Below, one piece after another: positions 11,917 to 57,675 of a stretch of DNA of 64,000 nt (position 1 is the stretch's first letter; every line of letters starts with the position of its first letter). This DNA comes from Bacteroidales bacterium (GTDB taxonomy: Bacteria > Bacteroidota > Bacteroidia > Bacteroidales > UBA4417), in NCBI GenBank assembly GCA_038322655.1, contig JBBQGD010000001.1, positions 7,871-71,870 on the forward strand, given 5' to 3'. The position numbers were made by a program, and so were the translations under genes. The notes under the pieces were generated by a model. That model was not told the origin of the DNA, ran no database searches, and was given only the letters and a program-made list of their open reading frames with translations.

Positions 11917-12575
11917 TAATGGAAATCATTTTAGCTCCTCAGTTCATTCCGATATCAGAAATCTTTTTTCATAATATTATTGTGCAGAACAAGTTCAATT
12001 TTATTTTCCTGCCATGTTTCGATATGAAAATTTATAAAATTGACCTCTCATTTGTCTTTTCATTCATTTAAAAAACTTAATCATCAATTTTGTAACAGAG
12101 CTACTGTAAATGGTTGATAATTTGTTGAAAACAATTTTTTTCGGGCCTTGAATAAATTAAAATATTTCCTATTTTTACTTCTTGCATTAAGATGTGGGAA
12201 TCATTCATTGTATGAATTAAAAAAACAGATTATTCCATTTGGAGCTGCAATTCCTGGTTCGGATATTTGTGTTTTTGATGTAAATTGTGCTGATACTAAT
12301 ATGGTAAAATGATTAGAAAAAGCAGCTGATTTTCTTATTTTGAAGTAAGTGAAGTGTTTTTGGGTCAAAAGTGTCCCGAAATGGCCTTTTATGATTGAAT
12401 GACATCAATAGCATATACATAGTGAAAGTGTTTTTTTTAGCTATGTAATAGCCTGTATAATAAGTATATAATATTTTAAGTGCAAATTTTATTCACCTTG
12501 GCAGGGTTGTTGATTTTCGGTTACCTGCGTTTTCCTGACAAAGGGAAAAACTAGGTTACTATTATAGCTCATTGT

Positions 12576-14615
12576 ATGGACGAAAACTTTACTAAAGAAA
12601 ATTTATCATCAGTGTCAGAGATTTCAGTTTACCAACTTGTAAACGCTCTATCTGACGCTGCTTTTATTTGTGATCGTACCGGGCGTGTAGAAGCTTGTTC
12701 CGATCAGGCTATTACTTTCTTCGATATAATTGATAAAACAAAAATTATCGGAAGCAGTTTTCAATCATTCATTGCTTATGAGGCGATTGATGAAGCTTAT
12801 TTTATGTTTCTTAATACTGTAAATGAACCTGTTAAGCTGGAAACAGTAATTTTTCCAGTTAAAAGAGGTTTGAGTGAAATATTTAAAGCTTCAATCACAT
12901 TTTCTCCGATTATTAATGATACAATATCCGGGAAGCATACTCTTGTTACATTCCGCGAAGCCCCGTCAGTTGATTCAGAAGTCGCAGTTCTACGTAAAAA
13001 AGACGTCAGGCTTTCACGTTTATTTGAGATATTAGGAAGTAACAAAGACCGGGCAGTAAGCAGAGCCATAAGCCTGGTGTCCCAGATTGGCGAAACTCTT
13101 GGAGCTGTATACTGTACTTATAGTCACTTCGAAAATGGTGAATTGTCTCCTGTCGCATCCTGGGAATCCCCATTTAATATAGGAATCACATCCCATTTAT
13201 TCAATAAACATATTTTCGATTACTTAACAGACCACAACGAAAGCCTTACTTTAATTCGTAAACCATTATTAGCGGAGTTTCTGAAATTGGAACCTTCTTA
13301 CAATCAGGAATCAGGTGTCAAAACGATCTTGGGATTTACTATTATGGAAAATAAGGAAGTTGATGGGATGATAACGGTAGTTTTCACATTCAACTATTCT
13401 CTTTCAACCTCTGATACGCAATTTTTACAATCAATAAGTTCAATTATTGAAAATGAAAATAGTACTGTAAAGAATGTAGTTCCATCGTCGGAGATTTTAT
13501 TTCGGGAAATGATCGATAGATTTATTGATCCCGTCTTTATTATTTCATCCGAAGGACTTATTATGGAAGTGAACAAAGGTGCTGTTAAGTGTTTTGGCTA
13601 TGATCGGCTGGAGTTGATAGGACAACCACATCTGCTTATCTCAGCTGAAGAAGAATATAACAATGCGATGATTCATCAGCGGTTAGAAAAAGCCTTCGGC
13701 ACAGAACCTCAAAGGTTTGAGTGGCTGATGAAACATAAAAGTGGTGAAATAATTTCAATGGAAGCCAATTTAACCAAAAGTACTTATCATGATCATGAAG
13801 TGGTAATTGTTATAGCCCGTGACTTAACTGACACTAAAAAAGTTGTCAATGAATTAAAGGATCATAACAATGAGCTCGAAGAATCTAATTTAAGTAAAGA
13901 TAAGTTTTTCGCCATATTTGCTCACGACCTGAAAAATCCTTTCCAAGGGTTACTTGGTTTCATCGATTTGCTTTATGAAGACCTGGATGATCTTAGTAAT
14001 GAGCAGGTAAAAGAATATTTATCAAATGTCAGGAATGCATCGTACCATACATATGCATTACTCGAGAATTTACTTGAATGGTCGAGGATACAAAGCGGGA
14101 AAATGCCTTTTACCCCTACCGTGTTTGATATACAAGACGAAATCAGTTCGGTTATAAGCGTTCTTGAAAATAATGCCACACAAAAGGATATCAAACTTAT
14201 TAATGAAGTGGAACCGAATATCATGGTCGAAGGAGACCGGAATATGATTCACTCTATAATTCAGAACCTGGTTACTAATTCCATCAAATTTTCAAATTCC
14301 AATGGGCGTGTAGTACTCAGAGTCCGTCTGCCCCAGACTTATATGAACCTTAAGGGATCAGCAGAACAGGGTGAAAGACAGTGGCTCGAGGTAAGCGTAT
14401 CGGACAATGGTATTGGTATACCGGAAGAAATTCTGCCTAAGCTATTCAAACTGAATGGTAAGTTTTCCAGTACTGGAACTGCCAACGAACCGGGTACAGG
14501 TCTCGGGTTGGTATTGTGCCACGAAATGGTTGAGAAAAACGGAGGCCGGATATGGGCCGAAAGCATCCCCGGACAAGGCACAACCTTTGTCTTTACAATT
14601 CCTCTAAGCAGATAA
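12576..14615 (+). CDS. PAS/GAF-like sensor histidine kinase (no receiver)
   Basis: 679 aa. H-box is FFAIFAHDLKNPF, N-box QNLVTNSIKFS, G1 DNGIGI, G2 GTGLGL. The PAS core is DPVFIISSEGLIMEVNKGAVKCFGY. Confidence 0.9.
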   Translation: MDENFTKENLSSVSEISVYQLVNALSDAAFICDRTGRVEACSDQAITFFDIIDKTKIIGSSFQSFIAYEAIDEAYFMFLNTVNEPVKLETVIFPVKRGLSEIFKASITFSPIINDTISGKHTLVTFREAPSVDSEVAVLRKKDVRLSRLFEILGSNKDRAVSRAISLVSQIGETLGAVYCTYSHFENGELSPVASWESPFNIGITSHLFNKHIFDYLTDHNESLTLIRKPLLAEFLKLEPSYNQESGVKTILGFTIMENKEVDGMITVVFTFNYSLSTSDTQFLQSISSIIENENSTVKNVVPSSEILFREMIDRFIDPVFIISSEGLIMEVNKGAVKCFGYDRLELIGQPHLLISAEEEYNNAMIHQRLEKAFGTEPQRFEWLMKHKSGEIISMEANLTKSTYHDHEVVIVIARDLTDTKKVVNELKDHNNELEESNLSKDKFFAIFAHDLKNPFQGLLGFIDLLYEDLDDLSNEQVKEYLSNVRNASYHTYALLENLLEWSRIQSGKMPFTPTVFDIQDEISSVISVLENNATQKDIKLINEVEPNIMVEGDRNMIHSIIQNLVTNSIKFSNSNGRVVLRVRLPQTYMNLKGSAEQGERQWLEVSVSDNGIGIPEEILPKLFKLNGKFSSTGTANEPGTGLGLVLCHEMVEKNGGRIWAESIPGQGTTFVFTIPLSR

Positions 14616-15143
14616 CTCTGATATATCTTTTATAATTACATATTGCAGATAGCATGGTAACAAGCTATCAATAATTATATTATTCTTTTTGTTTCATCTG
14701 AATCACCCAGTCCTACTCCGTAATCAGTGTTAAAATTATATTCAGTTTAAAGTTGATAAATTCCTGCCTGAATTTTCCATTCCGCTAATGTATTGTTAAT
14801 CAATATTTCATTTCATTTTAGTGGTGAACTGATGAAGAGTTTATATCCGAGTTTCAAAAGAATAATCGGGAGTAAAAAGATACCATCTGTTTTACAGGGA
14901 AACCCGGGTTTATATTTCTAAAAAGTATTGTCAACAAACAAACTTTTTGGAGTAAATAGCTGTGTTCTGGTAAATTCAAAGTTTAATTTTTTTCAATTCC
15001 TAAGTTCATGGTGCATACAAATGAACATAAAATCAAATAATTAGTTTTATGTATTGAATATTGGCATCTTTTTTTGATCTTTTTTATGATCTTTGTAAGA
15101 TTTTGAAGTACTTTTTTATTTAGATAAATATAAAAAATCATTC

Positions 15144-16352
15144 ATGCTAGATCTGTCAGATAGTAATAAACCCACATTTCCGGAAAAACGAAATGTTGAT
15201 TTCTCAATACTACTTTCACAGCCTGACAGTACCGTTTGGGATCTCATATTCGATTCAATGCCTGAAATGGTAGCGTTGATTGACCTTAAAAATATAGTCG
15301 TTAAAGCTAATAAAGCGATGCGTCATAGGGTCAATATAGGTGATACCAGTTTAATTGGCTACTCTTGTAATAAACTGATGCACGATGATGGATGTACTAT
15401 ATCAAATTGTCCGCATTTAAATATGATCAATGACAGGAAACCCCATGCCATTGAAATGTTTGAACCCAAATTTGGACTTTATCTCGAAATTAGTACTACT
15501 CCTATATTTGATTCACATAATAATTTATTAGGAAGTCTTCACATCGCCCGTGATATTTCATTACAAAAGGAATCTGAAGCCAGGCTAAGGAAATATAATA
15601 AAGAATTGGAAGAGCTTAATAACAGCAAAGATAAATTTTTTAGTATTGTTGCTCATGATCTACGCAGTCCTTTCCAGGGAATGCTTGGTTTTACCGACCT
15701 TATTCTCGACGATCTCAATTTCCTTAGTAAGGAAGAGATCAAGGATTATCTTCAAAAAGTTCGTGATTCGGCCTACAGTACATTTGCTTTACTCGAAAAT
15801 CTTTTGGATTGGTCGCGGATGCAAACCGGAAGACTGGAATATAAACCTTCAGAATTTAATTTGCATGAAGATTTAACATCGGTTATTAATTTACTTATCT
15901 CAAATGCACAGAGTAAAAATATTAACATTGTTAATAATCTGAATGAAGGATATATAGTGTTTGCTGACAGGCGCATGGTGCATTCGATTTTGCTGAACCT
16001 GATGACAAATGCCATTAAATTTACTTTCCCTGGAGGGACTGTATTATTTGATGCGAAATTAAAAGAGTTGAATGAAAGTAATTCCGCTAATGATCCTCAA
16101 TTCACCAATAGAAAGCATTTGGAAATTAGTGTTACCGATACCGGAGTTGGGCTTTCACCTGAAGGTTTGATGAAGATTTTTAACAATGATGAACCTTTCA
16201 CATTAGCAGGCACCTCCAACGAAAATGGCGCAGGCCTTGGTCTTAAGCTGGTTAAAGAAATGGCTGAAAAGCAAGGAAGCAATTTAACTATTAGCAGTCA
16301 GGAAGGAAAAGGCTCAGTATTTACTTTTACGTTACCTCTTGCTGATAAATAA
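15144..16352 (+). CDS. Single-PAS sensor histidine kinase with a Cys/His-rich PAS core
   Basis: 402 aa. H-box is FFSIVAHDLRSPF, N-box LNLMTNAIKFT, G1 DTGVGL, G2 GAGLGL. The PAS domain carries C75-x4-H80-x3-C84-x4-C89-P-H91. Confidence 0.9.
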   Translation: MLDLSDSNKPTFPEKRNVDFSILLSQPDSTVWDLIFDSMPEMVALIDLKNIVVKANKAMRHRVNIGDTSLIGYSCNKLMHDDGCTISNCPHLNMINDRKPHAIEMFEPKFGLYLEISTTPIFDSHNNLLGSLHIARDISLQKESEARLRKYNKELEELNNSKDKFFSIVAHDLRSPFQGMLGFTDLILDDLNFLSKEEIKDYLQKVRDSAYSTFALLENLLDWSRMQTGRLEYKPSEFNLHEDLTSVINLLISNAQSKNINIVNNLNEGYIVFADRRMVHSILLNLMTNAIKFTFPGGTVLFDAKLKELNESNSANDPQFTNRKHLEISVTDTGVGLSPEGLMKIFNNDEPFTLAGTSNENGAGLGLKLVKEMAEKQGSNLTISSQEGKGSVFTFTLPLADK

Positions 16353-19268: not shown

Positions 19269-19438
19269 TTATGTAGAAAAAGAGGTTAACATGCTAATTT
19301 TGTACTAGATTGTAAAGATTAATTAATGTCTTTGCTGAATAAAATCCAGGTTGAATTATGTTAAACTTCTGGGTATTAATTTTTTATACTAATCGTTAGT
19401 ATTCTTTACAACGTTGCAAAGCTAAACAAAATCAGGTG

Positions 19439-20599
19439 ATGACAGAAAAACGTAAGTATCAGAGATTTCTTATTCTTTGCCTTTTATGCTTTTTTGTGAA
19501 TTTTGTAAGTGCTCAAAAGGTGAATACTATAGTTCTTGATGCCGGTCATGGTGGTCATGATACTGGTGCTCTGGGTAAAAATTCGCGTGAAAAGGATATT
19601 GCTTTAGCAATTGTCCTGAAGTTAAGTGATTATATCCACAAAAATATGAAGGATGTGAAGGTGATCCTGACCCGCAAGGATGATACCTTTGTTGAATTAT
19701 ATCGCAGAGCCCGCATCGCCAACGAAAATAATGCTGACTTGTTTATTTCTGTACATTGTAATTCGACAAAATCACCTTATGCATATGGTGTTGAAACGTT
19801 TGTGATGGGACTTCATAAAAGTGATGCCAACCTGGCGGTAGCAAAAGCTGAGAATGCTGCCATCTTGCTCGAAGATAATTATGTTGAGAAATATGATGGT
19901 TTTGACCCCAATTCGCCTGAAGGCAATATATTTTTCAGTATGATGCAAAATGCATTTCTTGACAAAAGCCTTGATTTTGCAGGAAGTGTGCAGCACCAAC
20001 TCGTTGATGTCCTTCGTATGCCAAACCGGGGAGTTAAACAGGCCGGATTTTTGGTTTTATACAAAACGGCTATGCCAGGAGTATTGATTGAAACCGGTTT
20101 TTTGAGCAACCCGAAAGAAGAAAAAAATCTTTTATCTGATAATGGTCAGGATGAGATAGCACAAGCCATTTTCAACGCATTATTTAATTATAAAAATCAG
20201 ATAGAAAAGAACTCAATCGTACGCGAAAATGTCGACACTTTAGCCGCGGGTAAATCAATAACTGATAATTCTAAAAATACTGTAAACTCAAGATTGGGTA
20301 ATGCACCAACAAAACCGGATAGTCCGGAGGTTGTTTCATTTCGTGTGCAATTTGCTCTGTATTCAAAAGCCAAGCCTGTTGATTCAAAATTATTCAGTGG
20401 CATTGATGATCTAAAAATGTATTATCATGGAGGATCTTATAAGTATACTTCCGGTGATTTTAATACCATGGAGGACGCTTTACAAAGGCGTAAAGAAATG
20501 ATCACGAAAGGATACAAAGATGCTTTTGTTGTTGCATTTAAGGGTGATGAACGCATTACAAATGACGAAGCAAGGCGACTAACTGAAAAAAAGTATTAA
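19439..20599 (+). CDS. N-acetylmuramoyl-L-alanine amidase (Amidase_3) with C-terminal SPOR domain
   Basis: IVLDAGHGGHDTGA, ADLFISVHCNS and GVLIETGFLSNPKEE are Amidase_3 signatures. The C-terminal FRVQFALYS...GDFNTMEDALQRRKEMITKGYKDAFVVAF is SPOR-like. The ORF-track start at 19436 is GTG immediately followed by ATG at 19439. Confidence 0.85.
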   Translation: MTEKRKYQRFLILCLLCFFVNFVSAQKVNTIVLDAGHGGHDTGALGKNSREKDIALAIVLKLSDYIHKNMKDVKVILTRKDDTFVELYRRARIANENNADLFISVHCNSTKSPYAYGVETFVMGLHKSDANLAVAKAENAAILLEDNYVEKYDGFDPNSPEGNIFFSMMQNAFLDKSLDFAGSVQHQLVDVLRMPNRGVKQAGFLVLYKTAMPGVLIETGFLSNPKEEKNLLSDNGQDEIAQAIFNALFNYKNQIEKNSIVRENVDTLAAGKSITDNSKNTVNSRLGNAPTKPDSPEVVSFRVQFALYSKAKPVDSKLFSGIDDLKMYYHGGSYKYTSGDFNTMEDALQRRKEMITKGYKDAFVVAFKGDERITNDEARRLTEKKY

Positions 20600-23624: not shown

Positions 23625-23632
23625 TACATTTG
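23625..23632 (+). promoter_or_regulatory. Candidate -7 promoter box (TACATTTG) for gatE-gatD
   Basis: tacatttg matches TAnnTTTG. It overlaps the ORF-track TTG start (23630) and lies 24 nt upstream of the ATG at 23657. Confidence 0.45.
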
Positions 23633-23656: not shown

Positions 23657-25624
23657 ATGGCTCATACTATAGATCCAACTCTTAATTACGAAGAAACCAA
23701 ACACAAAACAGGGTATGTTCCACGCCTCGGATGCCCGCAGGAAACATACGACCGTATTGGCTTTATGTCGGGGCTGGAGGTCCACCAACAGCTCAAAACC
23801 GGGCAAAAACTATTCTGCCGATGCCCGACCGGCATATACCAGAAACCGGGTGATTTTGATGCTGAGGTGATCAGGCACATGAGGCCAACCCTAAGCGAAT
23901 TAGGCGAATACGATGGCACTGCACTTATGGAATTTAAAACCCGTAAGGAAATTATATATCGCTTAAAAAGTAAGACAACCTGTACTTACGAAATAGATGA
24001 TACACCTCCTTTCCCGCTCAACCGTGAAGCATTGGCAATTGCTATCGAGATTTCCCTGGTGTCGAAACTGAATATAGTTGGCGAAGTGCATATAACCCGC
24101 AAACAATACCTGGATGGCAGCATCCCAACTGGGTTTCAGCGAACGGCAATCATAGGCGTTGAAGGCGAAATCCCACTCAGGAATAAAAAAGTACGGCTTA
24201 TTCAGCTTAGCCTCGAAGAAGATTCATGCCGCGAAGTCAGCGATATAGGACATACACGTGTGTATCGGACCGACCGTCTCGGGATGCCGCTGATTGAAAC
24301 TGTCACCTATCCGGACATGACTAATCCCGACGAAGTGAAGGAAGCCTGTAACTACATTCGTTTCCTGGGCCGTAGTACAGGCAAAGTCCGCACCGGAATA
24401 GGAGCAGGCCGCCAGGATGTAAATGTAAGTTGCAAAGGCGGCACCCGTGTCGAGATAAAAGGTGTTGCTCACAGCCGCTGGATTCCTGAGCTCACGCATA
24501 ACGAATGTTTTCGCCAATGGGCATTGTTATCCATTCGTGAAATACTGAACAAGCGTTTCTCTGACTCTAAATCCTGGAAGCCGGCACATATTTTACTGGA
24601 TTTACATTCGTTTAATTCAAAAAATGGTTTTACAAAGGATGCAAAAGCCTACGGATTAAAACTTGTAGCAATAAACTTACCTGGTTTTAGTGGAATACTT
24701 TCCCATTTTACACAACCAGGCAAAGTATTCGCCAATGAACTCAGCGAACGGCTAAAAGTTATAGCATGTATTGAATTACCAAATATGTCTCACAGCGAAG
24801 AACCTGAACCCCTGTTCACAGAAACTGATTGGGATAAAATTCATGTTCTTCTTAATCCTGCAGAAAATGATGCGCAGCTGATTATCCGGGGACCTGAAGA
24901 AGATATAAAAACAGCAATTGAAACCATTGAGGAACGTTGCCGGATGGCATTTATCGGTGTGCCTCCCGAAACCCGTAAATCATTCGAAAATGGAACTACT
25001 ATTTTCGAACGCGTGCTTCCGGGAGCTGATCGCATGTATCCTGATACGGATTCTGCTCCCATTCCCCTTGAAAATGATTATATCGAATCATTGGGTAATA
25101 ATCTTCCTGAGGAAGTTGTTTCTCGCTACCAACGCCTGAAAAAATGGAATATTCCTGAAGATTGCTACACATATATTTTCAAGAAGAACCTTTTCCCACT
25201 GATAGAAAGAATCACTAACGAACTGGATATAAGTCCGGCATTTGTTGGAAAATTTTTCGGACACGCAGTAAAATGGGTGGAAGGCCAATTCAAACCGGCA
25301 GCTGAATTTGATTATAAGATCATTTATGCTTTGCTGCGTTTTATCAGGAAAAATAACCTTGATCTGAATATAGCGCGACGTATGCTACCGCAGGTGTACA
25401 AATATCCTAAAATGGAATTCGAATCGGTGCTTACCAGCATAGGATTTAAACCATACACTAAAGATCAGATTGTTTCGAAAGTTCCTTTCCTCAGGAATAA
25501 ATTTGCTGAAATACGGCTTTCCAAAGGTTCAGATGTTGAATATAATTGGATTATGGGTCAATTACGCCGGCAGGCTGAAGGGAATATGAGCATGGAGGAG
25601 TTGCGTGAGGCTCTCAGGGGCTAG
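23657..25624 (+). CDS. gatE: Glu-tRNA(Gln) amidotransferase subunit E, archaeal GatDE type
   Basis: Full-length resemblance to archaeal GatE as I recall it: GLEVHQQL...KLFCRCP, MRPTLSELGEYD, DGSIPTGFQRTAIIG, LSLEEDSCRE, RTDRLGMPLIETVT, GAGRQDVNVS..GGTRVEIKGV, then an inserted domain followed by GVPPETRKSFENGTTIFERVLPGADRMYPDTDSAPIPL and a helical tail. The start is taken at ATG 23657 (MAHTIDP). Confidence 0.85.
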   Translation: MAHTIDPTLNYEETKHKTGYVPRLGCPQETYDRIGFMSGLEVHQQLKTGQKLFCRCPTGIYQKPGDFDAEVIRHMRPTLSELGEYDGTALMEFKTRKEIIYRLKSKTTCTYEIDDTPPFPLNREALAIAIEISLVSKLNIVGEVHITRKQYLDGSIPTGFQRTAIIGVEGEIPLRNKKVRLIQLSLEEDSCREVSDIGHTRVYRTDRLGMPLIETVTYPDMTNPDEVKEACNYIRFLGRSTGKVRTGIGAGRQDVNVSCKGGTRVEIKGVAHSRWIPELTHNECFRQWALLSIREILNKRFSDSKSWKPAHILLDLHSFNSKNGFTKDAKAYGLKLVAINLPGFSGILSHFTQPGKVFANELSERLKVIACIELPNMSHSEEPEPLFTETDWDKIHVLLNPAENDAQLIIRGPEEDIKTAIETIEERCRMAFIGVPPETRKSFENGTTIFERVLPGADRMYPDTDSAPIPLENDYIESLGNNLPEEVVSRYQRLKKWNIPEDCYTYIFKKNLFPLIERITNELDISPAFVGKFFGHAVKWVEGQFKPAAEFDYKIIYALLRFIRKNNLDLNIARRMLPQVYKYPKMEFESVLTSIGFKPYTKDQIVSKVPFLRNKFAEIRLSKGSDVEYNWIMGQLRRQAEGNMSMEELREALRG

Positions 25625-25670
25625 GAATTGGAATTTGTGGATGAAATATTACTTAAAATTAGAATTAGAA

Positions 25671-27056
25671 ATGACTGACGATATTTTTCAGGGATACAAA
25701 GGTGCAGCACTCGAAGTACTTAAAAAATACAATGTGCGGGTATGGGGCCAGGCAATTATTAAAACCAGCAGGGGAGAGTTTACCGGAACAGTGCTTCCCC
25801 GATCCGAAAACGATGATGACAAGCATATTGTCATGAAGATTCCTACTGGTTATAACATTGGTCTCGATGTAGCCACAATTACCGGTATGAAAGAGACCGG
25901 GTATAAAAAAGCTAATTACAAAATTCCTGAAAAAGAATTCCCATACACAGAAGGATTACCCAAAGTGAAACTGATAGGTACAGGCGGTACCATCGCTTCA
26001 CGACTCGATTACCGGACAGGAGCAGTTATTCCGGCATTTTCACCAGGTGAGTTATACGGTGCTGTCCCGGAACTAGCCTCCATTTGTAATCTCACTACTG
26101 AAAAAGTTTTTGCTGTATTCAGCGAAAATATGTCACCTGATCATTATAAAAAACTAGCCGTTGCTATCGGTAAGGAAATAGAAGCCGGAGTTGATGGAAT
26201 TGTTATAGGTCATGGTACTGATACACTGCATCACACTGCTGCTGCGCTCACTTTTATGGTACAAAATTCTCCGGTGCCAATCGTGCTGGTGGGTTCACAG
26301 CGTTCAAGCGACCGTCCAAGTTCGGATGCAGCTCTCAATCTGATGCATGCCTGCACGGCTGCCGGCCATGGGGATATTGCGGAGGTTATGATATGTATGT
26401 TCGGACCAACCAGCGACGAATATGGTTTCCTTCACAGAGGCACCCGTGTACGTAAGATGCATTCGTCGTATCGGTCCACTTTCAGGACTATCGGCGATAC
26501 ACCTCTGGCAACAATTACCCGCAAAGGGCTCAAACCTATAAAGGAAGAATACAACCACCGGCGAAAGGACCGAAAAGTTACCATTTTACCATTTTTTGAG
26601 GAAAAAGTATCAATTGTATATTATTACCCTAATATGCAACCTGATATTATTGATTCGTTGGTTGAACACGGATACCGGGGCATTATAATTGCAGGTACAG
26701 GACTCGGACATGTAAATAAACCACTTTATCCTGCCATCGAAAGGGCAGCCAAAGCAGGCGTTGCCGTTTATATGACTGTACAAACATTATGGGGTTATGT
26801 ACACATGTTTGTGTATGATACAGGCCGCGACCTGATGGCAAAAGGAGTTGTGCCGGCTGAAAATATGTTACCGGAGGTTGCTTATATTAAATTAGGGTGG
26901 GCTCTAGGCCAAACCAGCGACCTGGAAGAAGTAAAAAGGCTGATGCTTACACCGGTTAATGATGAAACAACTCCCCGTGAACCGTATAATGGCTACCTCA
27001 TATACCAGGGAGGAGTGCCTGAAGTAGAAGAATTTATAAAGAAAGTTCACAAATAG
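25671..27056 (+). CDS. gatD: Glu-tRNA(Gln) amidotransferase subunit D, archaeal GatDE type (asparaginase-like)
   Basis: The N-terminal small domain (VRVWGQAIIKTSRGEFTGTVLPR...IVMKIPTGYNIGLDV) is followed by a type-I asparaginase core with both Thr motifs (IGTGGTIASRLDY and IGHGTDTLHHTAAAL) and RVRKMHSS. The start is taken at MTDDIF (25671). ATG 25641 is an alternative. The ORF-track start 25605 overlaps gatE. Confidence 0.85.
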   Translation: MTDDIFQGYKGAALEVLKKYNVRVWGQAIIKTSRGEFTGTVLPRSENDDDKHIVMKIPTGYNIGLDVATITGMKETGYKKANYKIPEKEFPYTEGLPKVKLIGTGGTIASRLDYRTGAVIPAFSPGELYGAVPELASICNLTTEKVFAVFSENMSPDHYKKLAVAIGKEIEAGVDGIVIGHGTDTLHHTAAALTFMVQNSPVPIVLVGSQRSSDRPSSDAALNLMHACTAAGHGDIAEVMICMFGPTSDEYGFLHRGTRVRKMHSSYRSTFRTIGDTPLATITRKGLKPIKEEYNHRRKDRKVTILPFFEEKVSIVYYYPNMQPDIIDSLVEHGYRGIIIAGTGLGHVNKPLYPAIERAAKAGVAVYMTVQTLWGYVHMFVYDTGRDLMAKGVVPAENMLPEVAYIKLGWALGQTSDLEEVKRLMLTPVNDETTPREPYNGYLIYQGGVPEVEEFIKKVHK

Positions 27057-27102: not shown

Positions 27103-30100
27103 TCAAATATTTGTTTTTTGAAGTAATTTATTGATTGATCCGAGTAATCTGTTCTTGCTAATAGGCTTCACTATGTAATCGTTGCAACCGGCCAACCTGG
27201 CTTCATTTTCATCATCTGATGAAATTAATCCGGAAAGAGCAATGATGGGCAGTTGCGGCAACATCTTCCGAATGAGCCTGGTGGATTCAAAACCATCCAT
27301 ATCAGGCATTTTCATATCCGTAAGCAGGATACATAGCTCAGGTGAATTTCTGCAAATCTCAATAGTTTCGATACCATTATGGGATCTGATAACTTTAAAA
27401 TCTGCTTTTTTAAGTACAATTTCCAGGTATTTGTAGTTGGAATCATCATCCTCGGCAACAAGTACTACACGTTGCCCGGCTGTTGTCAATTTTTCAGCAG
27501 GATTGATAACACCGGAACCTGTTTCATTTTCAGGTATAGTAAAGCAAAAGGTTGATCCTTCAGTATTTGTTGATTCAACCCATATATCACCTCCCAGACA
27601 TTTTACAAATCCCATGGCTATGGATAAGCCTAATCCACTGCCTTCATATTCACGCGAAGCTGATAAATCGGCTTGCCTGAAAATTTCAAATATTACAGGT
27701 AAAGTTTCTTCAGAAATCCCGGTGCCTGTGTCGCTTACTGAGAATAGGTGATTATCGTTTTTAAACTCATATGCGATGGTGACAGATCCGTCTTTTGTAA
27801 ATTTTATCGCATTATCTACCAGATGTGAAAATATTTTCGTAAGCAGAACGTCGTCAGTTTCAATTCGGAAATTATCGTCATGTGCTTTTTTAATGACATC
27901 CAATTTAAGGTTACGTGAGTGTAATGACTCAATAGTCTGATCAATTATTTTATTCAGAAAACTGCGAAGATTGAAAGAGCGTTTGTTAGTTTCAATGATT
28001 CCCGACACAATCATTGAAATATCCATATAGTTTGTAATGGTATTTATAAGCCTCGAACTGCTTTTTCTGATCATTTTATTGAACTCTATCCGGTCTTCTT
28101 CCGAACTGTCCATTCGGGTAATCATTTCGCTGAATCCTATAATGCCATTCAGCGGCGTTCGAAGTTCGTGAGTAATGTTCTGGAGAAAAGCAGATTTGAG
28201 CTTATCGTTGGCTTCAGCATATTCCTTGGCTTTCAATAATTCTTCCCTGGCTTGTTTACGTTCAGTAATATTGCGGAATACGCCTTGCAGAATATGTCGC
28301 CCGTTAAGCATTATGGTATTGGCAAGTATTTCTACCGGGATTTCAGTACCATCTGATCGGAGAATTATATTTTCATTTGGTTGAAGATTTTCTGCCTGTT
28401 GTTCTTTTTCTGAATCTTGACGGAAAGTTGCTTTTGAATATTCAATATTTCTAGATGGATGAATCATCGTCTGATGAAGTGTCTTGATTTCATCCAACGG
28501 ACGTCCAAGCATTCTGCAAGCAGCAGTATTTGCATCAATCAGCATTCCGGTTTCTATGTCGGCCAATATGATTGCATCGGGCGAAGCTTCAAAGAGTTCC
28601 CTGTATCTTTCTTCACTTTCCTGTAAAGCTGTTTCTGCCTGTAAACGATTTGAAATGTCCTCTTTTATAGCAAGATAATGGGTTACCTTACCTTCAGCAT
28701 CATTGATAGGCAATATCGTAGAGCTTTCATAGAAATACTCGCCATTTTTCTTCTTGTTAAGAAGAATGCCTTTCCACTCTTTCCCTTTTTTAATGGTATT
28801 CCACATCGATTTATATTCTTTCTCTGAGGTTTTTCCAGATTTGAATACAGATGTGTTTTGCCCGATCAATTCTTCAATTTTATACCCCGAAATTTTACAA
28901 CCTGCAGGATTGATATATTCTATTTTCCCTTGAAGATCAGTTATGATAATTGTATTTGGACTTTGCTGAACAACTGCTGAAAGTTTATGGAGTTCTTGTT
29001 CGGTATGATAACGTTTGCTGATATCCCGGCTCATCCCTCTGTAACCGATCAGTTTCCCTGCAGTGTCATAAACAGGAACGCCACTGGTTTCAAAATATAC
29101 CAGGTGCCCGTCTTTGTGTTTAAATTTATTTACCAATAAGTAAAAAGGCCTTGTACTTTGATCCTGTGATTGAATATCAATATTGATTTCGTTTAAGAGG
29201 TCATCAGAAATTAAGTCGTAAGGCGATTTTCCAATGGCTTCCCCGGGTGTATATCCCAGTATAGCTTCAATTTGCGGACTTACATACGTATAAATGCTGT
29301 CTTTATTTGTTTCCCATATAATATCAGAAGTCGATTCAACTAATGATTTGTATTTCTCTTCACTTTGCCTGAGTGTTTCTTCCGACTTTTTTCGATCTGT
29401 AATATTGCGGTAGATGGATTGATACGTTCCGTCGGGCATCATTTTGGTATGCATTTCAACAGGGATGGTATTTCCTTCTGGTTGAAGTAATTCCCGCTCA
29501 TTAATTACTGTTTTGCCTTTGTTGAGTAAATCGTATCTCAAAGGCTTTTCTTTCATTAAATCAGGTTTGAATAATTCCGTTATGTTTTTTCCTATCAGGT
29601 TTTTTAGTGATCGGCCGGTAAGCTTTTGCATGTAGGTATTTGCCTCGACTATGATGCCCTCGGGCGAACCTACCAGAATCCCGTCAACAGCAAGTTCAAT
29701 GAGTTCGCGGAATTTTCTTTCGCTTGTTTGCAGGGCAGTTTCTGCCAATTTTCGCTCAGTAATATCCTGAGCCATGGCAATATTTACCTTTTTGCCAAAA
29801 TAAGTGCTACCTATAACCCGAACTTCTTTTGGGAAAATTTCACCATTTGAACGCAGTCCCCAAAACTCAAATTGCTGTGGCTCGCCTGCAAAAGCAAGCT
29901 TAACCATAGCAGTTATGGCAAGAATGTTATTTTTGCCCGGAGCTGATACAAACAGTGGATTTTTACCAATCAATACTTCGCGGGGATAGCCATACATTTT
30001 TATAGCACCTTCATTTACATCTAAAAAGGTACCCTCTTCATCCTGTATGTAAATGGCATCTGTAACATTATTGAATAATTCCTGATAGCTGATTTCAGTA

Positions 30101-30987
30101 GCAGAATGTGTTTCCCATGCCTGTTTAATTTGGGTTAAGTCGGTAAATGAAGCAAGCATACATACAGGTTGATCCGAAGAATCTTTGACCATGCTTGCTG
30201 AAGACTGTACGTCAAATAATTCCCCGTTTTTTTTCAAGGCAATCATTTCACCGGTCCAGCTTCCATTTTTTCTTACAGACTTAATGACTTCATCTGCTTT
30301 CTCAATATTTTGCCAGAAACTTGTAACCGGATTTCCTGCTATTTCAGTTAATGAATTGTATCCCCATAATTTGATAAATGCCGGGTTCACGTATGTAAGT
30401 ATTCCCTGGAGGTCGGAAATAGCCATAGCATGTGTGGATGATTCTATGGCCCAATCTTTAATGCGGATGGCTTCTTCGGTTTGTTTTCTCAAAGTCACAT
30501 CTGTCCATGTGCAATGTACTTGTTTTAGGTTTCCGTTTTCATCCAAGCTGGACTTCGCAATAAAATTTACAAAAATTTGAGTCCTGTTCTTGCATATCAT
30601 CTCAAGTTCAAGCTCATGAATTTCATCTGATTTTTTAAAATCCGAGAAACATGTTTTTATTAATTCATCCGATTGAGGGGTAAGGAACTCTGTAAAAGGG
30701 TGGCCTATAACTTCTTCAAGCTTATAGCCCAATGTAATAAGCCATGCAGGATTGACATCAATAAAATATCCGTTGGCTTCTAAGGCCTGGTAATTAATCG
30801 GGGCGTTGTGGTATAAATCCCAAAAGCTAATTTCTTTGTCAAAACCTGCATTTATGGCTGGGGTATTCTTCGATGATCCATCATCAATACTTTTTTTTAG
30901 TGTTGTATAGGCAAGTTTTAGATCTTGTAACTCGTTATGGAGTTTTTCATAAGCTTCATCTTTATTTTCTTTATATCGGCTCATCAA
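27103..30987 (-). CDS. Hybrid sensor histidine kinase: about 7 PAS, HisKA, HATPase, C-terminal receiver
   Basis: 1294 aa. H-box is AFLQNITHELRTPLNG, N-box SHLVDNAIKFT, G1 DTGTGI, G2 GSGLGL. REC shows VLVAEDDD...LLTDMKMPDMDG...IVKP. No TM segment. It starts 11 nt after the upstream kinase stop. Confidence 0.9.
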   Translation of the reverse strand: MMSRYKENKDEAYEKLHNELQDLKLAYTTLKKSIDDGSSKNTPAINAGFDKEISFWDLYHNAPINYQALEANGYFIDVNPAWLITLGYKLEEVIGHPFTEFLTPQSDELIKTCFSDFKKSDEIHELELEMICKNRTQIFVNFIAKSSLDENGNLKQVHCTWTDVTLRKQTEEAIRIKDWAIESSTHAMAISDLQGILTYVNPAFIKLWGYNSLTEIAGNPVTSFWQNIEKADEVIKSVRKNGSWTGEMIALKKNGELFDVQSSASMVKDSSDQPVCMLASFTDLTQIKQAWETHSATEISYQELFNNVTDAIYIQDEEGTFLDVNEGAIKMYGYPREVLIGKNPLFVSAPGKNNILAITAMVKLAFAGEPQQFEFWGLRSNGEIFPKEVRVIGSTYFGKKVNIAMAQDITERKLAETALQTSERKFRELIELAVDGILVGSPEGIIVEANTYMQKLTGRSLKNLIGKNITELFKPDLMKEKPLRYDLLNKGKTVINERELLQPEGNTIPVEMHTKMMPDGTYQSIYRNITDRKKSEETLRQSEEKYKSLVESTSDIIWETNKDSIYTYVSPQIEAILGYTPGEAIGKSPYDLISDDLLNEINIDIQSQDQSTRPFYLLVNKFKHKDGHLVYFETSGVPVYDTAGKLIGYRGMSRDISKRYHTEQELHKLSAVVQQSPNTIIITDLQGKIEYINPAGCKISGYKIEELIGQNTSVFKSGKTSEKEYKSMWNTIKKGKEWKGILLNKKKNGEYFYESSTILPINDAEGKVTHYLAIKEDISNRLQAETALQESEERYRELFEASPDAIILADIETGMLIDANTAACRMLGRPLDEIKTLHQTMIHPSRNIEYSKATFRQDSEKEQQAENLQPNENIILRSDGTEIPVEILANTIMLNGRHILQGVFRNITERKQAREELLKAKEYAEANDKLKSAFLQNITHELRTPLNGIIGFSEMITRMDSSEEDRIEFNKMIRKSSSRLINTITNYMDISMIVSGIIETNKRSFNLRSFLNKIIDQTIESLHSRNLKLDVIKKAHDDNFRIETDDVLLTKIFSHLVDNAIKFTKDGSVTIAYEFKNDNHLFSVSDTGTGISEETLPVIFEIFRQADLSASREYEGSGLGLSIAMGFVKCLGGDIWVESTNTEGSTFCFTIPENETGSGVINPAEKLTTAGQRVVLVAEDDDSNYKYLEIVLKKADFKVIRSHNGIETIEICRNSPELCILLTDMKMPDMDGFESTRLIRKMLPQLPIIALSGLISSDDENEARLAGCNDYIVKPISKNRLLGSINKLLQKTNI

Positions 30988-30998
30988 CTTTTTATTTT

Positions 30999-33900
30999 TT
31001 AAGTAGCATTTTTTACTGTAAAGTAGAATGTACTACCTATTTCCTCTTCACTTTCAACCCAGATTTTTCCGCCGTTTTTTTCGACAAATTCTTTGCACAG
31101 TATAAGTCCAAGCCCGGTAGAGAGCTCACCATCTGTTCCTTTTGTTTTATAATTTGCATCAATAATGAAAAGCTTTTTTATCATTTCTGTTTTTATTCCT
31201 GTTCCTGTATCGTTTACTGAAACAGTAACGAAATGGTCTTCTGCAGCAGAAGCTGATATCCGGACAAAACCTCCGGTAGGTGTAAATTTTACAGCGTTAG
31301 AGAGTAAGTTGCGGATAATGGTAAGCAGCATATGAGAATCAGCGATCACATGAAGGTTTTCGGGAATTTCAATTTGTATATCTATTTCTTTCAGTTTTGC
31401 ATTATCCGAAATAATATTGGTGCAGTTATTTACGATCGGAAGGAGTTGCAAAGTTTCAGGCTCAAACCTTGTTACATCACGGTGTAACAGTGACCACTCA
31501 AGCAGGTTTTCGAGCAACTGATACAAGTTGATAGCTGAGGTCCGCATATATGATACAATAGACTTCAACTCCTCTTTTGGAAGGGTATCGACTTCTTCGT
31601 CGAGTATTTCGGTAAATCCAAGAAAAGCAGTAAACGGACTTCGCAGATCGTGAGCTATGATAGAGAAAAATTTGTCTTTGCTGTTATTTAATGCCTGGAG
31701 ATCTGCTGCATTTTTTTGCATCTGATCTTCAAATCTCTTTTGTTCGGTCAGGTCAATAATAACGCCTCTTGTTCCAATGCTTCTGTTTCCAGATATGATC
31801 GGAACTGAATGGATAGAGAAAGGAAAGGTCGCACCACTTTTTGTTATGCCAGTCATGCTTGCCCGATCCGATTTTTGGGGACCAAAAACAGCTTCCATGT
31901 GTAAACGAATCTCATCACGGTTTTCGGGAGATACAAGTTGATCAATCAGGCTATCTGCATTAAGGTCCTCTTGTTGGTAACCAAAAAGCTGCAATCCGGT
32001 ATCATTTAAATAGATAAGTTTGCCACTGTAATCAGCCTCATAAATAGTTTCGGGAAGTAGCTCAACAAGGTCCTGGAATTTTTGTCTGCTCTCGGTAAGG
32101 GCTTGTTCAATACGTTTCCGTTCAATAATTTCTTTCTCCAATCTCGAATTATGCAATTTCTGAACATTAATTCTTATTATACCAGATATAATCAACCCTA
32201 TCGAAATTAGCACCAGAAGCAGAAACCACCATGTAAAATAATAAGGATTTGTTATTCGGATTGTTGCTGACCGTTTGATATCACTCCATACTCCTGAAAA
32301 ATTACGGGCTTGTACACAGAAAGTATATATGCCTGGTTTCAGCCCAATATATTTGACTTTACCAATCATGGGCTGTGTTATGTCCTGCCAATCCTTATCG
32401 AAACCTTCGAGTTTGTATTTGTACTCAATCAAATTTTCATTATAAAAGGAAATTCCCCTGAATTGGAAAATCAAAGTATTATCAGAATATTTGATCCTGC
32501 TTTGCTGTTTTAAACCATGCTGAATACCTCTGCTGTCTTCGGCGTAAAGCAGGTCGATTACCGGTGTTGGAATTGTTGTTTTATCGAATCCGGGTTCAAA
32601 ACAGGATAGTCCCCGATCAGTACCGACCCATATTCGGCCTTTTGAGTCTTCTATGCCAGCAGAGCGGTTTGTTTCCCATCCTGCGAGGCCGTTGAAGGCA
32701 TTGTAAATGGTGATTTTACGATCTCCGTCCCATCTGTATACACCATTATCGGAACCAATCCAAAAAAATCCGATATGATCCTGGAAAATGAAGAAAACAG
32801 GGTTGCTGATTTCTATTCCATTTTTCCTGAACTTAATAATACTGTCATTTTCAATTATATACAAACCATGTATAGTGCCAACAAACTCAACACCTTTTTT
32901 GTCCTTGTAATATGAATATACATCGTCAGCTTTTTTATCGGCGGGTGAAGGAATTCTTTTAACTACAGTATCGTTGACATACCAAAGTCCATTTGATCCT
33001 GCAAGAAATAGTCCTCCGTCATCTGCAAGGAATATTTTGCGTAATGTAGCATGGATTTTCTCCATGTGCTTATATTCAATAAAAATGCCATTTCGTAAAT
33101 TGAAAAGTTTTCCGTCGACGATTGCCCAGATCCTGCCGGCTTTATCCTGGAGAACTGCCGAGGTATTTCTGCGGTTGTCTTTTTTATACCAGGTAATATT
33201 CCCGTTGGGCTGTAATCTGGCCAGGCCCAATACAACAGATGTGAACCAGATATTACCGGACTTGTCTTTCATCATATCAGCCACACGCGTATTCTGTAGC
33301 TTTGAATCAGGGAAAACTATTGTTTTATACAAATTATCTGAGTTGAAGATTGAAAGACCATTATTATGACCTAGTACTATTCTTCCGTCATTCATCTCAG
33401 TAATGGCTGATACTTCATTCTCATACATACCGTTTTTCTCACGATATATTTTAAGGTTTAAATTATTAAACTTACTTATTCCCCTGGTATCGGTGAACCA
33501 TACATTTTGTTCGCGATCGATAAATACCGAAGTTGCTCCATGTGAAGTAAATCCGTTATTAACCATCAGAGGAACTGCAATATCTGTTGATTTTAAAATA
33601 TAATATTTAGCCCAGATGTTTCCAAAGAAAATATTTCCTTGATCATCGACTGATATGTAAGCGTTGTAATAAATCGTTGGATGTGGCAACTGAAACTTAG
33701 TACTGACTTTGGTAAATGTATTATTCTGAATATATCCGACCCATTTTTCACTTAAAACCCATAACTTAAAATCCGGAGTACTTTTATTTTGAATGCTGAT
33801 CGATATAATGTCTTCACTATTAGGTTTAAGAAGTGTAATTAAACTTGTATCTATTTTGCCGTTTTCGCAAATTAATATCCCTTTTTTCGTCGCCAGATAA

Positions 33901-34439
33901 AATTTGTTCTGTTTCCCGATAACTGTATTCACGTAATTATCCGGTTCATTTTCAGATATTTTAAAATGTGTCCATTTATTGTTCTCATAAATGTAGAACC
34001 CGTCGGAGCATCCGATACAAACAACCGGGTAATTATTTTTGTAGATGATATCGAACGAGTTACTCAGGTAATTCTCTGTCCCTTTTTGTAGAGAAGGTAG
34101 TTTAAGCCACTGGTTATCATAAAAATAAACGATTGAATCTTTTGTGTATTGGGGCATCGCCCATATTATTCCTTTATCATCGATTCTTATTTTTTTGTAA
34201 CGCTTATCCGGTAACCCGCTGGTATTGTCAAAGTTTGTAAAACTAAAACCATCATATTTCGATATACCGAAATTGGTTGCAAACCACATAATGCCTGTGC
34301 TGTCCTGGCAGGCATCATTAATACTACGGGTTGGCAAACCATCACTTATGGTGTATGTCTTTATGAAATACTCCTGCGAAAAGCTTAACTGAATTATAGA
34401 AATAAATAAAATAAGAAATATGAATTTCTTGACTTTCAT
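30999..34439 (-). CDS. Periplasmic beta-propeller/Y_Y_Y sensor histidine kinase (no receiver, no HTH)
   Basis: Signal peptide is MKVKKFIFLILFISIIQLSFSQ (the start at 34439 is preferred over 34466). About 700 aa of two-component-regulator-propeller repeats (W..T..G...F) and a Y_Y_Y-like segment (YKYKLEGFDKDWQ) precede the TM (WWFLLLVLISIGLIISGII). One PAS follows. H-box is FFSIIAHDLRSPF and G2 is STGLGL. Confidence 0.85.
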   Translation of the reverse strand: MKVKKFIFLILFISIIQLSFSQEYFIKTYTISDGLPTRSINDACQDSTGIMWFATNFGISKYDGFSFTNFDNTSGLPDKRYKKIRIDDKGIIWAMPQYTKDSIVYFYDNQWLKLPSLQKGTENYLSNSFDIIYKNNYPVVCIGCSDGFYIYENNKWTHFKISENEPDNYVNTVIGKQNKFYLATKKGILICENGKIDTSLITLLKPNSEDIISISIQNKSTPDFKLWVLSEKWVGYIQNNTFTKVSTKFQLPHPTIYYNAYISVDDQGNIFFGNIWAKYYILKSTDIAVPLMVNNGFTSHGATSVFIDREQNVWFTDTRGISKFNNLNLKIYREKNGMYENEVSAITEMNDGRIVLGHNNGLSIFNSDNLYKTIVFPDSKLQNTRVADMMKDKSGNIWFTSVVLGLARLQPNGNITWYKKDNRRNTSAVLQDKAGRIWAIVDGKLFNLRNGIFIEYKHMEKIHATLRKIFLADDGGLFLAGSNGLWYVNDTVVKRIPSPADKKADDVYSYYKDKKGVEFVGTIHGLYIIENDSIIKFRKNGIEISNPVFFIFQDHIGFFWIGSDNGVYRWDGDRKITIYNAFNGLAGWETNRSAGIEDSKGRIWVGTDRGLSCFEPGFDKTTIPTPVIDLLYAEDSRGIQHGLKQQSRIKYSDNTLIFQFRGISFYNENLIEYKYKLEGFDKDWQDITQPMIGKVKYIGLKPGIYTFCVQARNFSGVWSDIKRSATIRITNPYYFTWWFLLLVLISIGLIISGIIRINVQKLHNSRLEKEIIERKRIEQALTESRQKFQDLVELLPETIYEADYSGKLIYLNDTGLQLFGYQQEDLNADSLIDQLVSPENRDEIRLHMEAVFGPQKSDRASMTGITKSGATFPFSIHSVPIISGNRSIGTRGVIIDLTEQKRFEDQMQKNAADLQALNNSKDKFFSIIAHDLRSPFTAFLGFTEILDEEVDTLPKEELKSIVSYMRTSAINLYQLLENLLEWSLLHRDVTRFEPETLQLLPIVNNCTNIISDNAKLKEIDIQIEIPENLHVIADSHMLLTIIRNLLSNAVKFTPTGGFVRISASAAEDHFVTVSVNDTGTGIKTEMIKKLFIIDANYKTKGTDGELSTGLGLILCKEFVEKNGGKIWVESEEEIGSTFYFTVKNAT

Positions 34440-35073
34440 TTTTATACAAGATTTCAGATACATCATGTTCAGAATAATAAAATAGTTTTAATGAACTGAG
34501 TCCATTTTAATTGAAATTGTTTTTGTCTGGCTGTTAGTGCTAAGTAATATTTAGGAAGTAATTAGTTAAGTGATGTTATAAAACTGATTTGCACCGGATT
34601 TTGTGTCTTAAAACCAAGCTGATTTCAAAAGTAAACCAATGGATTATCACGATTTCATTATCCCGGGAATGTTTTCTTCTATTAAGTTTTGTACAAAAAT
34701 AATTAATTATTCCGCTTTGTGCAATATGACAGGTAGTTTTTATACTTTGCCATAGCGAAATCTGTGGAAATCAGGAATTTCTGACTAACCCTACAATTTC
34801 CGATTGGATAGCGTGATTAAAACTTTCTGATTGATTAAGTGTTAAATTTATAGTGCATGTAGAAGTCACTGATTTGAAAAAATAATTCCTCTCAAATTTA
34901 ATGTCTGGATTATTTTGGTAGTCAATGTAACTTACATGATTTTAACACAAAGCCATTGTTGAACTACAACAAATGTATTTAATGTATGTTTGAGAATAAT
35001 CCGGCAAAATGGCTCATAAATTTTTACCAACAATAAGAAACTACTATTAAATCATGTTGTTTGCCTTCTTATA

Positions 35074-50682: not shown

Positions 50683-50751
50683 CCCAGGTTTTTCTTTTTT
50701 CTCATATTGTAAATATGGAGAAATGAGATAATATAACCCAATATTCCTCTT

Positions 50752-54015: not shown

Positions 54016-54024
54016 TAGCTTGAA

Positions 54025-57000: not shown

Positions 57001-57675
57001 GCTGAACCCGTGCTTGAATTTTATGTAAAAGATACCGGAATCGGTATTCCTGTTGACAGACAAAAAGCGATTTTTGATCGTTTTATCCAGGCCGATATTG
57101 CCGATACCAGGGCCTTTCAGGGAGCCGGGTTAGGCTTGTCGATTGCTAAAGCATATGTTGAAATGCTTGGAGGCAAAATGTGGGTCGAAAGCGAAGAAGG
57201 CGCCGGTTCAACATTCTATTTTACTATTCCTTATAATCCTGTTCAGAAAGTAAAAACGCTTGTACAAGATTCAGCTCTGCCTGCCGGGGAAAGAGATGAG
57301 GTTAAAAAACTGAAGGTATTGATTGTAGAAGATGATGAGATATCTGTTATGCTGCTGATGCTGATGTTGAAACCGTTCAGCAGGAAAACTTTAATAACAG
57401 ATACAGGAGTTGAAGCTATCGAGATTTGTCGGAGCAACCCGGATATCGACCTGGTTTTAATGGACATCAAAATGCCTGTAATGGACGGGTACGAAGCCAC
57501 CAGGCAGATACGGAAATTTAATAAAGAAGTAGTTATTATTGCACAAACAGCCTATGGACTGAGTGGTGACGAGGAAAAGGCGATGGCAGCCGGAAGCAAT
57601 GGTTATATTGCGAAGCCACTGGATCTATCTGTTTTAAAGGGACTGATACAATCACATTTTGATAATATCAGTTGA
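54025..57675 (+). CDS. 5 PAS, GAF, HisKA-HATPase-REC hybrid histidine kinase
   Basis: 1216 aa with no TM segment. The GAF segment is [16 protein letters not shown]...[22 protein letters not shown]. H-box is [16 protein letters not shown]. REC shows VLIVEDDE...[13 protein letters not shown]...IAKP. It starts 9 nt after the upstream kinase stop. Confidence 0.9.
   Translation: [1216 protein letters not shown]

Follow-up and report, generated by a model that had tools for sequence, protein, structure and literature searches.

In a 64,000-nt stretch of the Bacteroidales contig JBBQGD010000001.1 (the window, by which we mean the whole stretch of DNA that was analyzed), two adjacent + strand genes, gatE and gatD, encode members of the two subunit families of GatDE. 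This tRNA-dependent amidotransferase has been described as an archaeal signature protein or as exclusive to archaea (PMC2330236, 2008; PMC2811023, 2009; PMC8007984, 2021; PMC8762117, 2022; PMC9499178, 2022). We consider it probable that the pair codes for a working GatDE heteromer in a Lentimicrobiaceae-like member of the Bacteroidales, its most likely function being to convert Glu-tRNA(Gln) to Gln-tRNA(Gln). Family membership, catalytic residues, the fold of GatE, gene pairing, residence in the genome and purifying selection argue for this reading, and activity, tRNA substrate and subunit assembly would be those of the archaeal enzyme by analogy. The enzyme itself is known, but here it occurs in a domain of life where it was not expected; it belongs to a distinct clade and carries a remodelled tRNA-recognition module.

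The gene pair encodes full-length GatE and GatD

Two neighbouring open reading frames (ORFs) occupy 23630/23657–25624 and 25605/25671–27056 of the + strand, the paired figures being alternative starts. ATG 23657 was taken as the start of gatE because its homologues are 655–657 amino acids (aa) long, and ATG 25671 as that of gatD because conservation of GatD begins exactly there; the gap between the genes is 46 nt. An earlier note, made from the letters of the window, had placed both ORFs here and read them as full-length GatE and GatD. Both are present, and all of the motifs quoted for them were found (GLEVHQQL, KLFCRCP, LSLEEDSCRE, GAGRQDVNVS, TRVEIKGV and GVPPETRKS...RMYPDTDSAPIPL in GatE; GTGGTIAS and GHGTDT in GatD).

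GatE matched two equivalog models over its full length, NF003107 with 472.4 bits (cut-off 456, E=2e-141) and TIGR00134 with 407.5 bits (cut-off 319.55), residues 30–654 aligning to model positions 4–624. The narrow margin over the NF003107 cut-off fits the diverged tail described below. The best sequence matches in the PDB were archaeal GatDE (2d6f_C, E=3e-85; 1zq1_C, E=2e-82). Pfam recognized GatB_N in the window protein; the insertion domain shared 23–28% identity with that of other clades, and matches to Pfam GAD (PF02938) were present in GatE relatives. An AlphaFold2 model of GatE (predicted local distance difference test, pLDDT, 82; predicted template modelling score, pTM, 0.76) was compared with known structures by Foldseek, and 1zq1_C and 2d6f came out on top (target-normalised TM score ~0.8 over ~506–561 columns). 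Full-length GatB ranked next, and weak matches to AspRS were consistent with the insertion domain. The residues His43, Glu188 and Glu214 correspond to His15, Glu157 and Glu184 of Methanothermobacter thermautotrophicus GatE, which are its Mg2+ ligands (PMC2330236). These ligands and about 20 further active-site residues were invariant among the representatives aligned (6 Bacteroidota, 30–31 other bacterial and 82–83 archaeal), and R440, R452, R459, Y461, T464 and D465 were likewise invariant across clades.

GatB, the paralog of GatE in bacterial GatCAB (Staphylococcus aureus 3IP4, Thermotoga maritima 3AL0), shares the cradle chemistry and a YqeY-like tail, and GatCAB is the bacterial enzyme for the same reaction. 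In GatB, however, the insertion domain is missing, and in place of an asparaginase-type GatD its partners are GatC and GatA, a member of the amidase family. Identification of the window protein as GatB was rejected: the best GatB model gave 123 bits against a cut-off of 338 (all GatB cut-offs were ≥315), and the insertion domain is present. The first-base-pair loop has the GatE length, without the 3-10 turn insertion of GatB, and the Lys-rich tail motif of GatB is absent as well.

GatD scored 499.2 bits against NF003217 (cut-off 310, E=7e-150) and 497.8 bits against TIGR02153 (cut-off 324), in both cases over its full length. Its best PDB match was 1zq1_A (E=2e-116), and it is 47% identical to Pyrococcus abyssi GatD. 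Catalysis by archaeal GatD uses a Thr nucleophile plus a Thr-Lys-Asp triad (PMC2330236); Thr107 (nucleophile), Thr183-Asp184 and Lys262 of the window protein correspond to T102, T178-D179 and K256 of P. abyssi GatD and were invariant in 59 Bacteroidota GatD, 2 other bacterial GatD and the P. abyssi protein. Type I L-asparaginase (AnsA; TIGR00519) has the same fold and catalytic residues, and GatD exceeded the cut-off of that model (375.7 bits; cut-off 260.5). An ordinary asparaginase was nevertheless ruled out by the additional GatD_N domain and by the higher GatD equivalog score (499 bits), and the gene lies beside gatE. With bacterial-GatB and plain-asparaginase identities both rejected and all catalytic residues kept in the alignments, the assignment to full-length GatE and GatD is borne out by equivalog families, catalytic residues and, for GatE, the predicted fold.

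The window pair resembles archaeal GatDE (M. thermautotrophicus 2D6F, P. abyssi 1ZQ1) in having the same two subunits, the same GatE domain order (cradle, AspRS-like insertion, helical domain, YqeY-like tail), a GatD in which an N-terminal domain precedes a core of the type I asparaginase kind, and identical Mg2+ ligands and Thr/Thr-Asp-Lys residues. It differs in residing in a diderm bacterium and in a separate bacterial clade (100/100 bootstraps), in the adjacency of its two genes, which holds in 7 of 7 loci from other bacterial phyla and in most Bacteroidota loci, in lacking the GXXAXGX tail motif and, among Bacteroidota, in its remodelled helical/tail region (12–20% identity to archaeal tails) and in having Ala-Gly for Thr-Ile in the first-base-pair loop.

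Two further features of GatE were observed. Residues 1–29 (23657–23743) form a ~29-residue N-terminal extension of Bacteroidota GatE, without archaeal counterpart and with ~10% identity to other bacterial GatE; residues 7–18 are modelled as a confident helix, and the block 11–40 has a predicted pLDDT above 90. In four segments of the model (residues 74–94, 110–116, 150–160 and 455–463) pLDDT falls below 50, and these overlap the highly conserved motifs RHMRPTLSELGEYDGTALMEF, QYLDGSIPTG and PGADRMYPD. Such segments are probably active-site or tRNA-binding loops that would be ordered only with substrate or GatD.

gatE and gatD are long-resident genes under purifying selection

At least 571 species-representative genomes encode relatives, complete chromosomes among them. 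The best 80 of these were all from Bacteroidales, Lentimicrobiaceae or other Bacteroidota, including chromosomes OY762227.1 and OY759717.1, and their loci, with ~10 kb of flank per contig, were compared with the window. gatD follows gatE in 61 of the 80, and two more end at a contig edge. The flanks on both sides recur across many independent Bacteroidales/Lentimicrobiaceae assemblies, among them a 5.47-Mb chromosome (L005). The block of OstA, MlaD, amidase and LptD genes upstream of gatE is kept even where GatE identity has fallen to 65–67% and OstA identity to 37–45%.

Substitution rates were determined between the window and its closest locus (L001). The ratio of nonsynonymous to synonymous substitution rates (dN/dS) was 0.060 for gatE, 0.057 for the gatE tail alone and 0.019 for gatD. 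The synonymous rates (dS) of gatE (0.81) and gatD (0.93) were similar to those of ostA (0.87) and mlaD (0.70); the two genes have therefore diverged in step with their neighbours. GatD is consistently far better conserved than GatE in the same genomes (77–98% against 65–91% identity), as their dN/dS values also show, and toward archaeal homologues (47% against 32–37%).

The suspicion that the pair is an artefact, that is, mis-binned or chimeric archaeal DNA or a very recent, possibly decaying horizontal insertion, would draw on the standing of GatDE as an archaeal signature protein and on base composition, as the G+C contents of gatE (0.438) and gatD (0.442) lie about 5–6 points above the window mean (0.383). 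Other conserved genes, mutB (0.457) among them, have similar values, however, and the codon usage of the pair is that of the host. The recurrence of both flanks in many independent assemblies, the chromosome included, the dS equal to that of the neighbours, the separate clade with its low identity to archaeal proteins, and intact ORFs under purifying selection all speak against an artefact, which we regard as extremely improbable. The earlier note had argued for residence partly from hand counts of G+C in one stretch each of gatE and mutB. Both counts (32/60) are exact, and synteny, dN/dS, matching dS and composition strongly support its view that the pair is neither contamination nor a recent insertion. 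These data indicate that gatDE is under strong purifying selection, long resident and not recently acquired.

A bacterial GatDE clade and its origin

GatE was searched exhaustively against 1.84 billion cluster representatives, and the 610 matches at E<=1e-30 fell into three tiers by identity to window GatE. The Bacteroidota tier consisted of one representative at 63%, labelled Bacteroidales/Lentimicrobiaceae; the labelled members of the middle tier (43–55%) were bacterial only, and those of the lower tier (<=37%) archaeal. The middle tier, together with a profile search seeded from it, comprised sequences from Deltaproteobacteria/Desulfaltia, CSSED10-310, Calditrichia, Latescibacteria, Krumholzibacteria, Aminicenantes and one 'Clostridiales' metagenome-assembled genome (MAG). 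In all seven non-Bacteroidota bacterial loci gatD lies directly 3′ of gatE, and the seven middle-tier neighbourhoods are plainly bacterial (Mur ligases, MraZ, Lnt, SecA, DnaA, FtsEX, RodZ, RND/OEP efflux and sigma-54 activators). One of the non-Bacteroidota loci (L083, 13486–17075) has gatE–gatD followed directly on the same strand by hpf, which encodes a ribosome hibernation factor, hprK, ptsH and ptsI; this translation and carbon-status neighbourhood was seen in no other locus. The homologues annotated automatically in MAGs (Lentimicrobiaceae/Bacteroidales, Calditrichia, Latescibacteria, Krumholzibacteria, Aminicenantes and Desulfobacterota-type) belong to the same clade as the window pair, GatE identity being 65–91% within Bacteroidota and 43–55% to other phyla. 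Most of the phyla that share the clade are uncultured.

In a neighbour-joining tree (Kimura distances) of 120 full-length GatE sequences, 37 bacterial and 83 archaeal representatives, the split between bacterial and archaeal GatE was recovered in 100/100 bootstraps, as was the Bacteroidota subclade. The nearest archaeal sequences were those of Heimdallarchaeota and Thorarchaeota, plus a cluster with an Asgard-like neighbourhood (TRAP-beta, STT3, Spt4, Rpb5, PolB), in which gatE stands alone, without an adjoining gatD. Tyr151 and Pro157 are common to bacterial GatE, Asgard-side GatE and GatB; in most other archaea the two positions are Val and Thr. When three fragments of the GatB cradle, obtained from PDB alignments, were used to root the GatE tree, every placement of the root received <=8/60 bootstraps; transfer and a deeper origin were therefore not told apart by this rooting. 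In the shared-state columns GatB had the bacterial state in two, the archaeal state in two and neither in seven. The most economical explanation of these sequences would be an old transfer from archaea to bacteria, after which the operon was inherited vertically and also spread within bacteria, because the bacterial distribution is patchy and the closest archaeal relatives are of Asgard type.

tRNA-recognition elements are remodelled in Bacteroidota GatE

Divergence of the window GatE is unevenly distributed along the protein. The cradle is 55–60% identical to that of other bacteria and 42–44% identical to that of archaea; the corresponding values are 16% and 20% for the helical domain, and 12% and 12% for the tail. 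The Pfam model GatB_Yqey (PF02637) found no match on window GatE or its Bacteroidota relatives, in contrast to other bacterial GatE, which keep the match. Collinear homology ruled out that an unrelated domain has completely taken the place of the tail: in hhalign the Bacteroidota helical/tail region matched the tails of non-Bacteroidota bacteria and of archaea with 98.8% and 98.5% probability, and the alignments ran collinearly over 176–178 columns at 17–18% identity. The same comparison between other bacterial and archaeal tails gave E=4e-44 and 32% identity. The region is predicted to consist of helices in the AlphaFold2 model (pLDDT ~90).

A helix of the archaeal GatE tail has been proposed to dock the tRNA's D-loop (PMC2811023). 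In archaea the sequence of this helix is G..A... LMG..M...RGK.DGK; Bacteroidota have SKG.DVEHNW IMGQLRRQAEGNMSM and other bacteria DP.KK.RY LMG..M...RGR..GK, and every clade conserves its own form; in window GatE the pocket is SKGSDVEYNW-IMGQLRRQAEGN. Non-Bacteroidota bacterial GatE thus retain both the GatB_Yqey tail and the LMG..M...RG+..G pocket, unlike the Bacteroidota members, which have neither and whose tail is 12–16% identical to theirs. In the basic loop beside the first base pair, Ala250-Gly251 take the place of the archaeal Thr/Ser-Ile/Val, and the length of the loop is unchanged. We infer from this pattern of substitution that the changes in the tail and in the first-base-pair loop may reflect a re-tuned recognition of bacterial tRNA(Gln).

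Function of bacterial GatDE and alternative explanations

If the pair works like its archaeal counterpart, two GatE subunits would be bound by one dimer of GatD. GatE would bind Glu-tRNA(Gln) and phosphorylate the side chain of its glutamate with ATP/Mg2+ by means of His43, Glu188 and Glu214. GatD would hydrolyse Gln or Asn with Thr107 as the nucleophile and Thr183-Asp184-Lys262 as the triad, and the ammonia released would pass through an internal tunnel to GatE and yield Gln-tRNA(Gln).

Several observations weigh against a GatDE of this kind acting in the host. Archaeal GatDE needs an A1-U72 pair and an archaeal D-loop (PMC2330236), and the bacterial tRNA(Gln) species studied have U1-A72 (PMC2330236, PMC2811023); neither archaeal feature would be expected in a bacterial tRNA(Gln). 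The pocket motif LMG..M...RG+.DG is absent from Bacteroidota GatE. The tail motif GXXAXGX was absent from all 115 Bacteroidota and all 97 other bacterial sequences; strict GXXAXG is nevertheless a weak marker, because only 11 of 63 archaeal representatives carry it. About ten Bacteroidota loci have no gatD within 10 kb on either side of gatE, with 3.6–10 kb of downstream sequence present (L033, L034, L035, L039, L045, L047, L049, L053, L060 and L071); there gatD may either lie elsewhere, as in the Asgard locus L086, or be missing. No GlnRS, GluRS or GatB-like gene was found by tBLASTN with approximate Escherichia coli queries in the window or in 84 loci, and ARAGORN found no tRNA-Gln gene in the window or in 60 loci with flanks of ~10 kb. 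GlnRS is usual in Bacteroidota; if it is present in the host, the need for GatDE is unexplained.

The altered pocket motif and first-base-pair loop of Bacteroidota GatE could also be read as the mark of an amidotransferase with changed or broadened specificity, which would, like bacterial GatCAB, convert Asp-tRNA(Asn) to Asn-tRNA(Asn) in addition or instead, or would serve a single tRNA isoacceptor. That the tail is still under strong purifying selection (see its dN/dS above) fits a specificity that is new and yet constrained. We hold this explanation to be rather improbable. The AspRS-like insertion domain is kept, and modelling suggests that it clashes with non-discriminating AspRS (ND-AspRS; PMC2330236); the residues of the catalytic pocket are the same as in archaeal GatE, and the missing GXXAXG is, as noted, a weak marker.

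Bacteroidota typically encode GlnRS and often GatCAB, and the distribution of GatDE among bacteria is patchy. Together with the lack of any pathway partner linked to gatDE in 90 loci, this is compatible with a redundant back-up or a repurposed enzyme, either a stress-specific route to Gln-tRNA beside GlnRS/GatCAB or a kinase/amidase acting on a non-tRNA substrate. To such an enzyme we assign a small probability, as GatD remains 77–98% identical where OstA is only 37–90% identical, with the very low dN/dS given above, all tRNA-enzyme domains are kept, and the pairing of gatE with gatD holds across phyla.

A working GatDE that makes Gln-tRNA(Gln) remains the reading that we prefer. It can be extended, tentatively, to a scenario that we consider possible without calling it likely: GatDE may have taken over from GatCAB and/or GlnRS as the main or only route to Gln-tRNA(Gln) in Lentimicrobiaceae-type Bacteroidales, and perhaps also in the clade's other phyla; its tail and first-base-pair loop would then have been re-engineered for bacterial tRNA(Gln). 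As a further possibility, the bacterial clade could be a deep sister lineage that is not nested in archaeal GatE.

Upstream region and other genes of the window

The coordinates of the gene pair, its domains and a candidate promoter element are listed in Table 1. The earlier note had pointed to a TAnnTTTG box 24 nt upstream of gatE. The box, TACATTTG, is read directly in the sequence; it is a consensus match, not proof of function. It sits in a 116-bp divergent intergenic region that gatE has in common with the OstA-like gene. A sigma-70 promoter scan yielded sites no more numerous than in shuffled sequence, and an Rfam scan of the window gave no match, with no leader or riboswitch 5′ of gatE.

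Table 1. Coordinates of gatE, gatD, their domains and the upstream box in the window.
Feature	Position	Strand	Remarks
TACATTTG	23625..23632	+	Fits the -7 promoter consensus of Bacteroidota (TAnnTTTG); separated by 24 nt from the ATG of gatE; consensus match only
gatE	23657..25624	+	655 aa and a stop codon; subunit E of Glu-tRNA(Gln) amidotransferase, a tRNA-dependent kinase/transamidase
GatE cradle domain, N-terminal part	23744..24556	+	Residues 30-300; Mg2+ ligands His43, Glu188, Glu214; first-base-pair loop 242-251
GatE insertion domain, AspRS/GAD-like	24557..24946	+	Residues 301-430; aligns with GatE entries of PDB and NCBIfam
GatE cradle domain, C-terminal part	24947..25096	+	Residues 431-480; ETR and RMYPDTD motifs
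GatE helical plus YqeY-like tail region	25097..25621	+	Residues 481-655; kept but strongly diverged in Bacteroidota
gatD	25671..27056	+	461 aa and a stop codon; subunit D of Glu-tRNA(Gln) amidotransferase, a glutaminase of asparaginase type (ammonia supplier)
GatD N-terminal domain	25761..25877	+	Residues 31-69; PF18195 GatD_N, 39.9 bits (cut-off 25.7); GatD-specific among asparaginases
GatD asparaginase core, N and C domains	25962..26945	+	Residues 98-425; PF00710 Asparaginase, PF17763 Asparaginase_C

The genes flanking the pair encode LptD_2, OstA_2, MCE/MlaD, Amidase_3, OmpA and S46/Dpp7 peptidase proteins, and a methylmalonyl-CoA mutase gene is also present. The earlier note had listed LptD, OstA, MlaD, a SPOR amidase, OmpA and S46 peptidase here. 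All of these families were found, except that the amidase showed no SPOR domain at E<=1e-4, and the flanking outer-membrane genes support the diderm bacterial context that it had described. In the N-acetylmuramoyl-L-alanine amidase (19436–20599) Amidase_3, at residues 32–249, was the sole Pfam match at this threshold, and about 130 C-terminal residues lie beyond it.

The window is unusually dense in sensor histidine kinases, with twelve in 64 kb (9253–16352, 27103–34466 and 39060–61282). A run of three multi-PAS hybrid kinases (1723, 1087 and 1216 aa), one with a PocR sensory domain, occupies 45511–57675; the others include one CHASE-domain kinase and one Y_Y_Y/propeller kinase.

Significance

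We found no description of a bacterial GatDE in the literature searched, the coverage of which was incomplete, and an earlier report is possible. In GenBank (PGAP) and IMG, bacterial homologues have already been named GatE and GatD automatically. The novelty that the earlier note saw in the pair thus stands as regards the literature, in which reviews up to 2022 say archaeal only. At the level of the databases it is lower, because the clade is widespread and already auto-annotated; the pair is not a singleton, and its clade spans several phyla.

A large, conserved and vertically inherited clade of bacterial GatDE contradicts the statement that the enzyme is confined to archaea, and gatDE is unusable as an archaeal marker in the binning of metagenomes. 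The supposed absence of GatDE from bacteria has been built into accounts of how Gln-tRNA synthesis and tRNA(Gln) identity evolved, such as the idea that archaea never gained GlnRS owing to co-evolution of GatDE with a tRNA(Gln) of archaeal type. The bacterial clade also adds data on whether GatDE predates the split between archaea and bacteria; if it were a deep sister lineage, this would be of direct relevance to the proposal of a GatDE already present in LUCA, life's last universal common ancestor. Finally, the clade offers a natural experiment in which an amidotransferase tuned to A1-U72 and archaeal D-loops would have adapted to bacterial tRNAs, and the candidate sites of that adaptation are clear.

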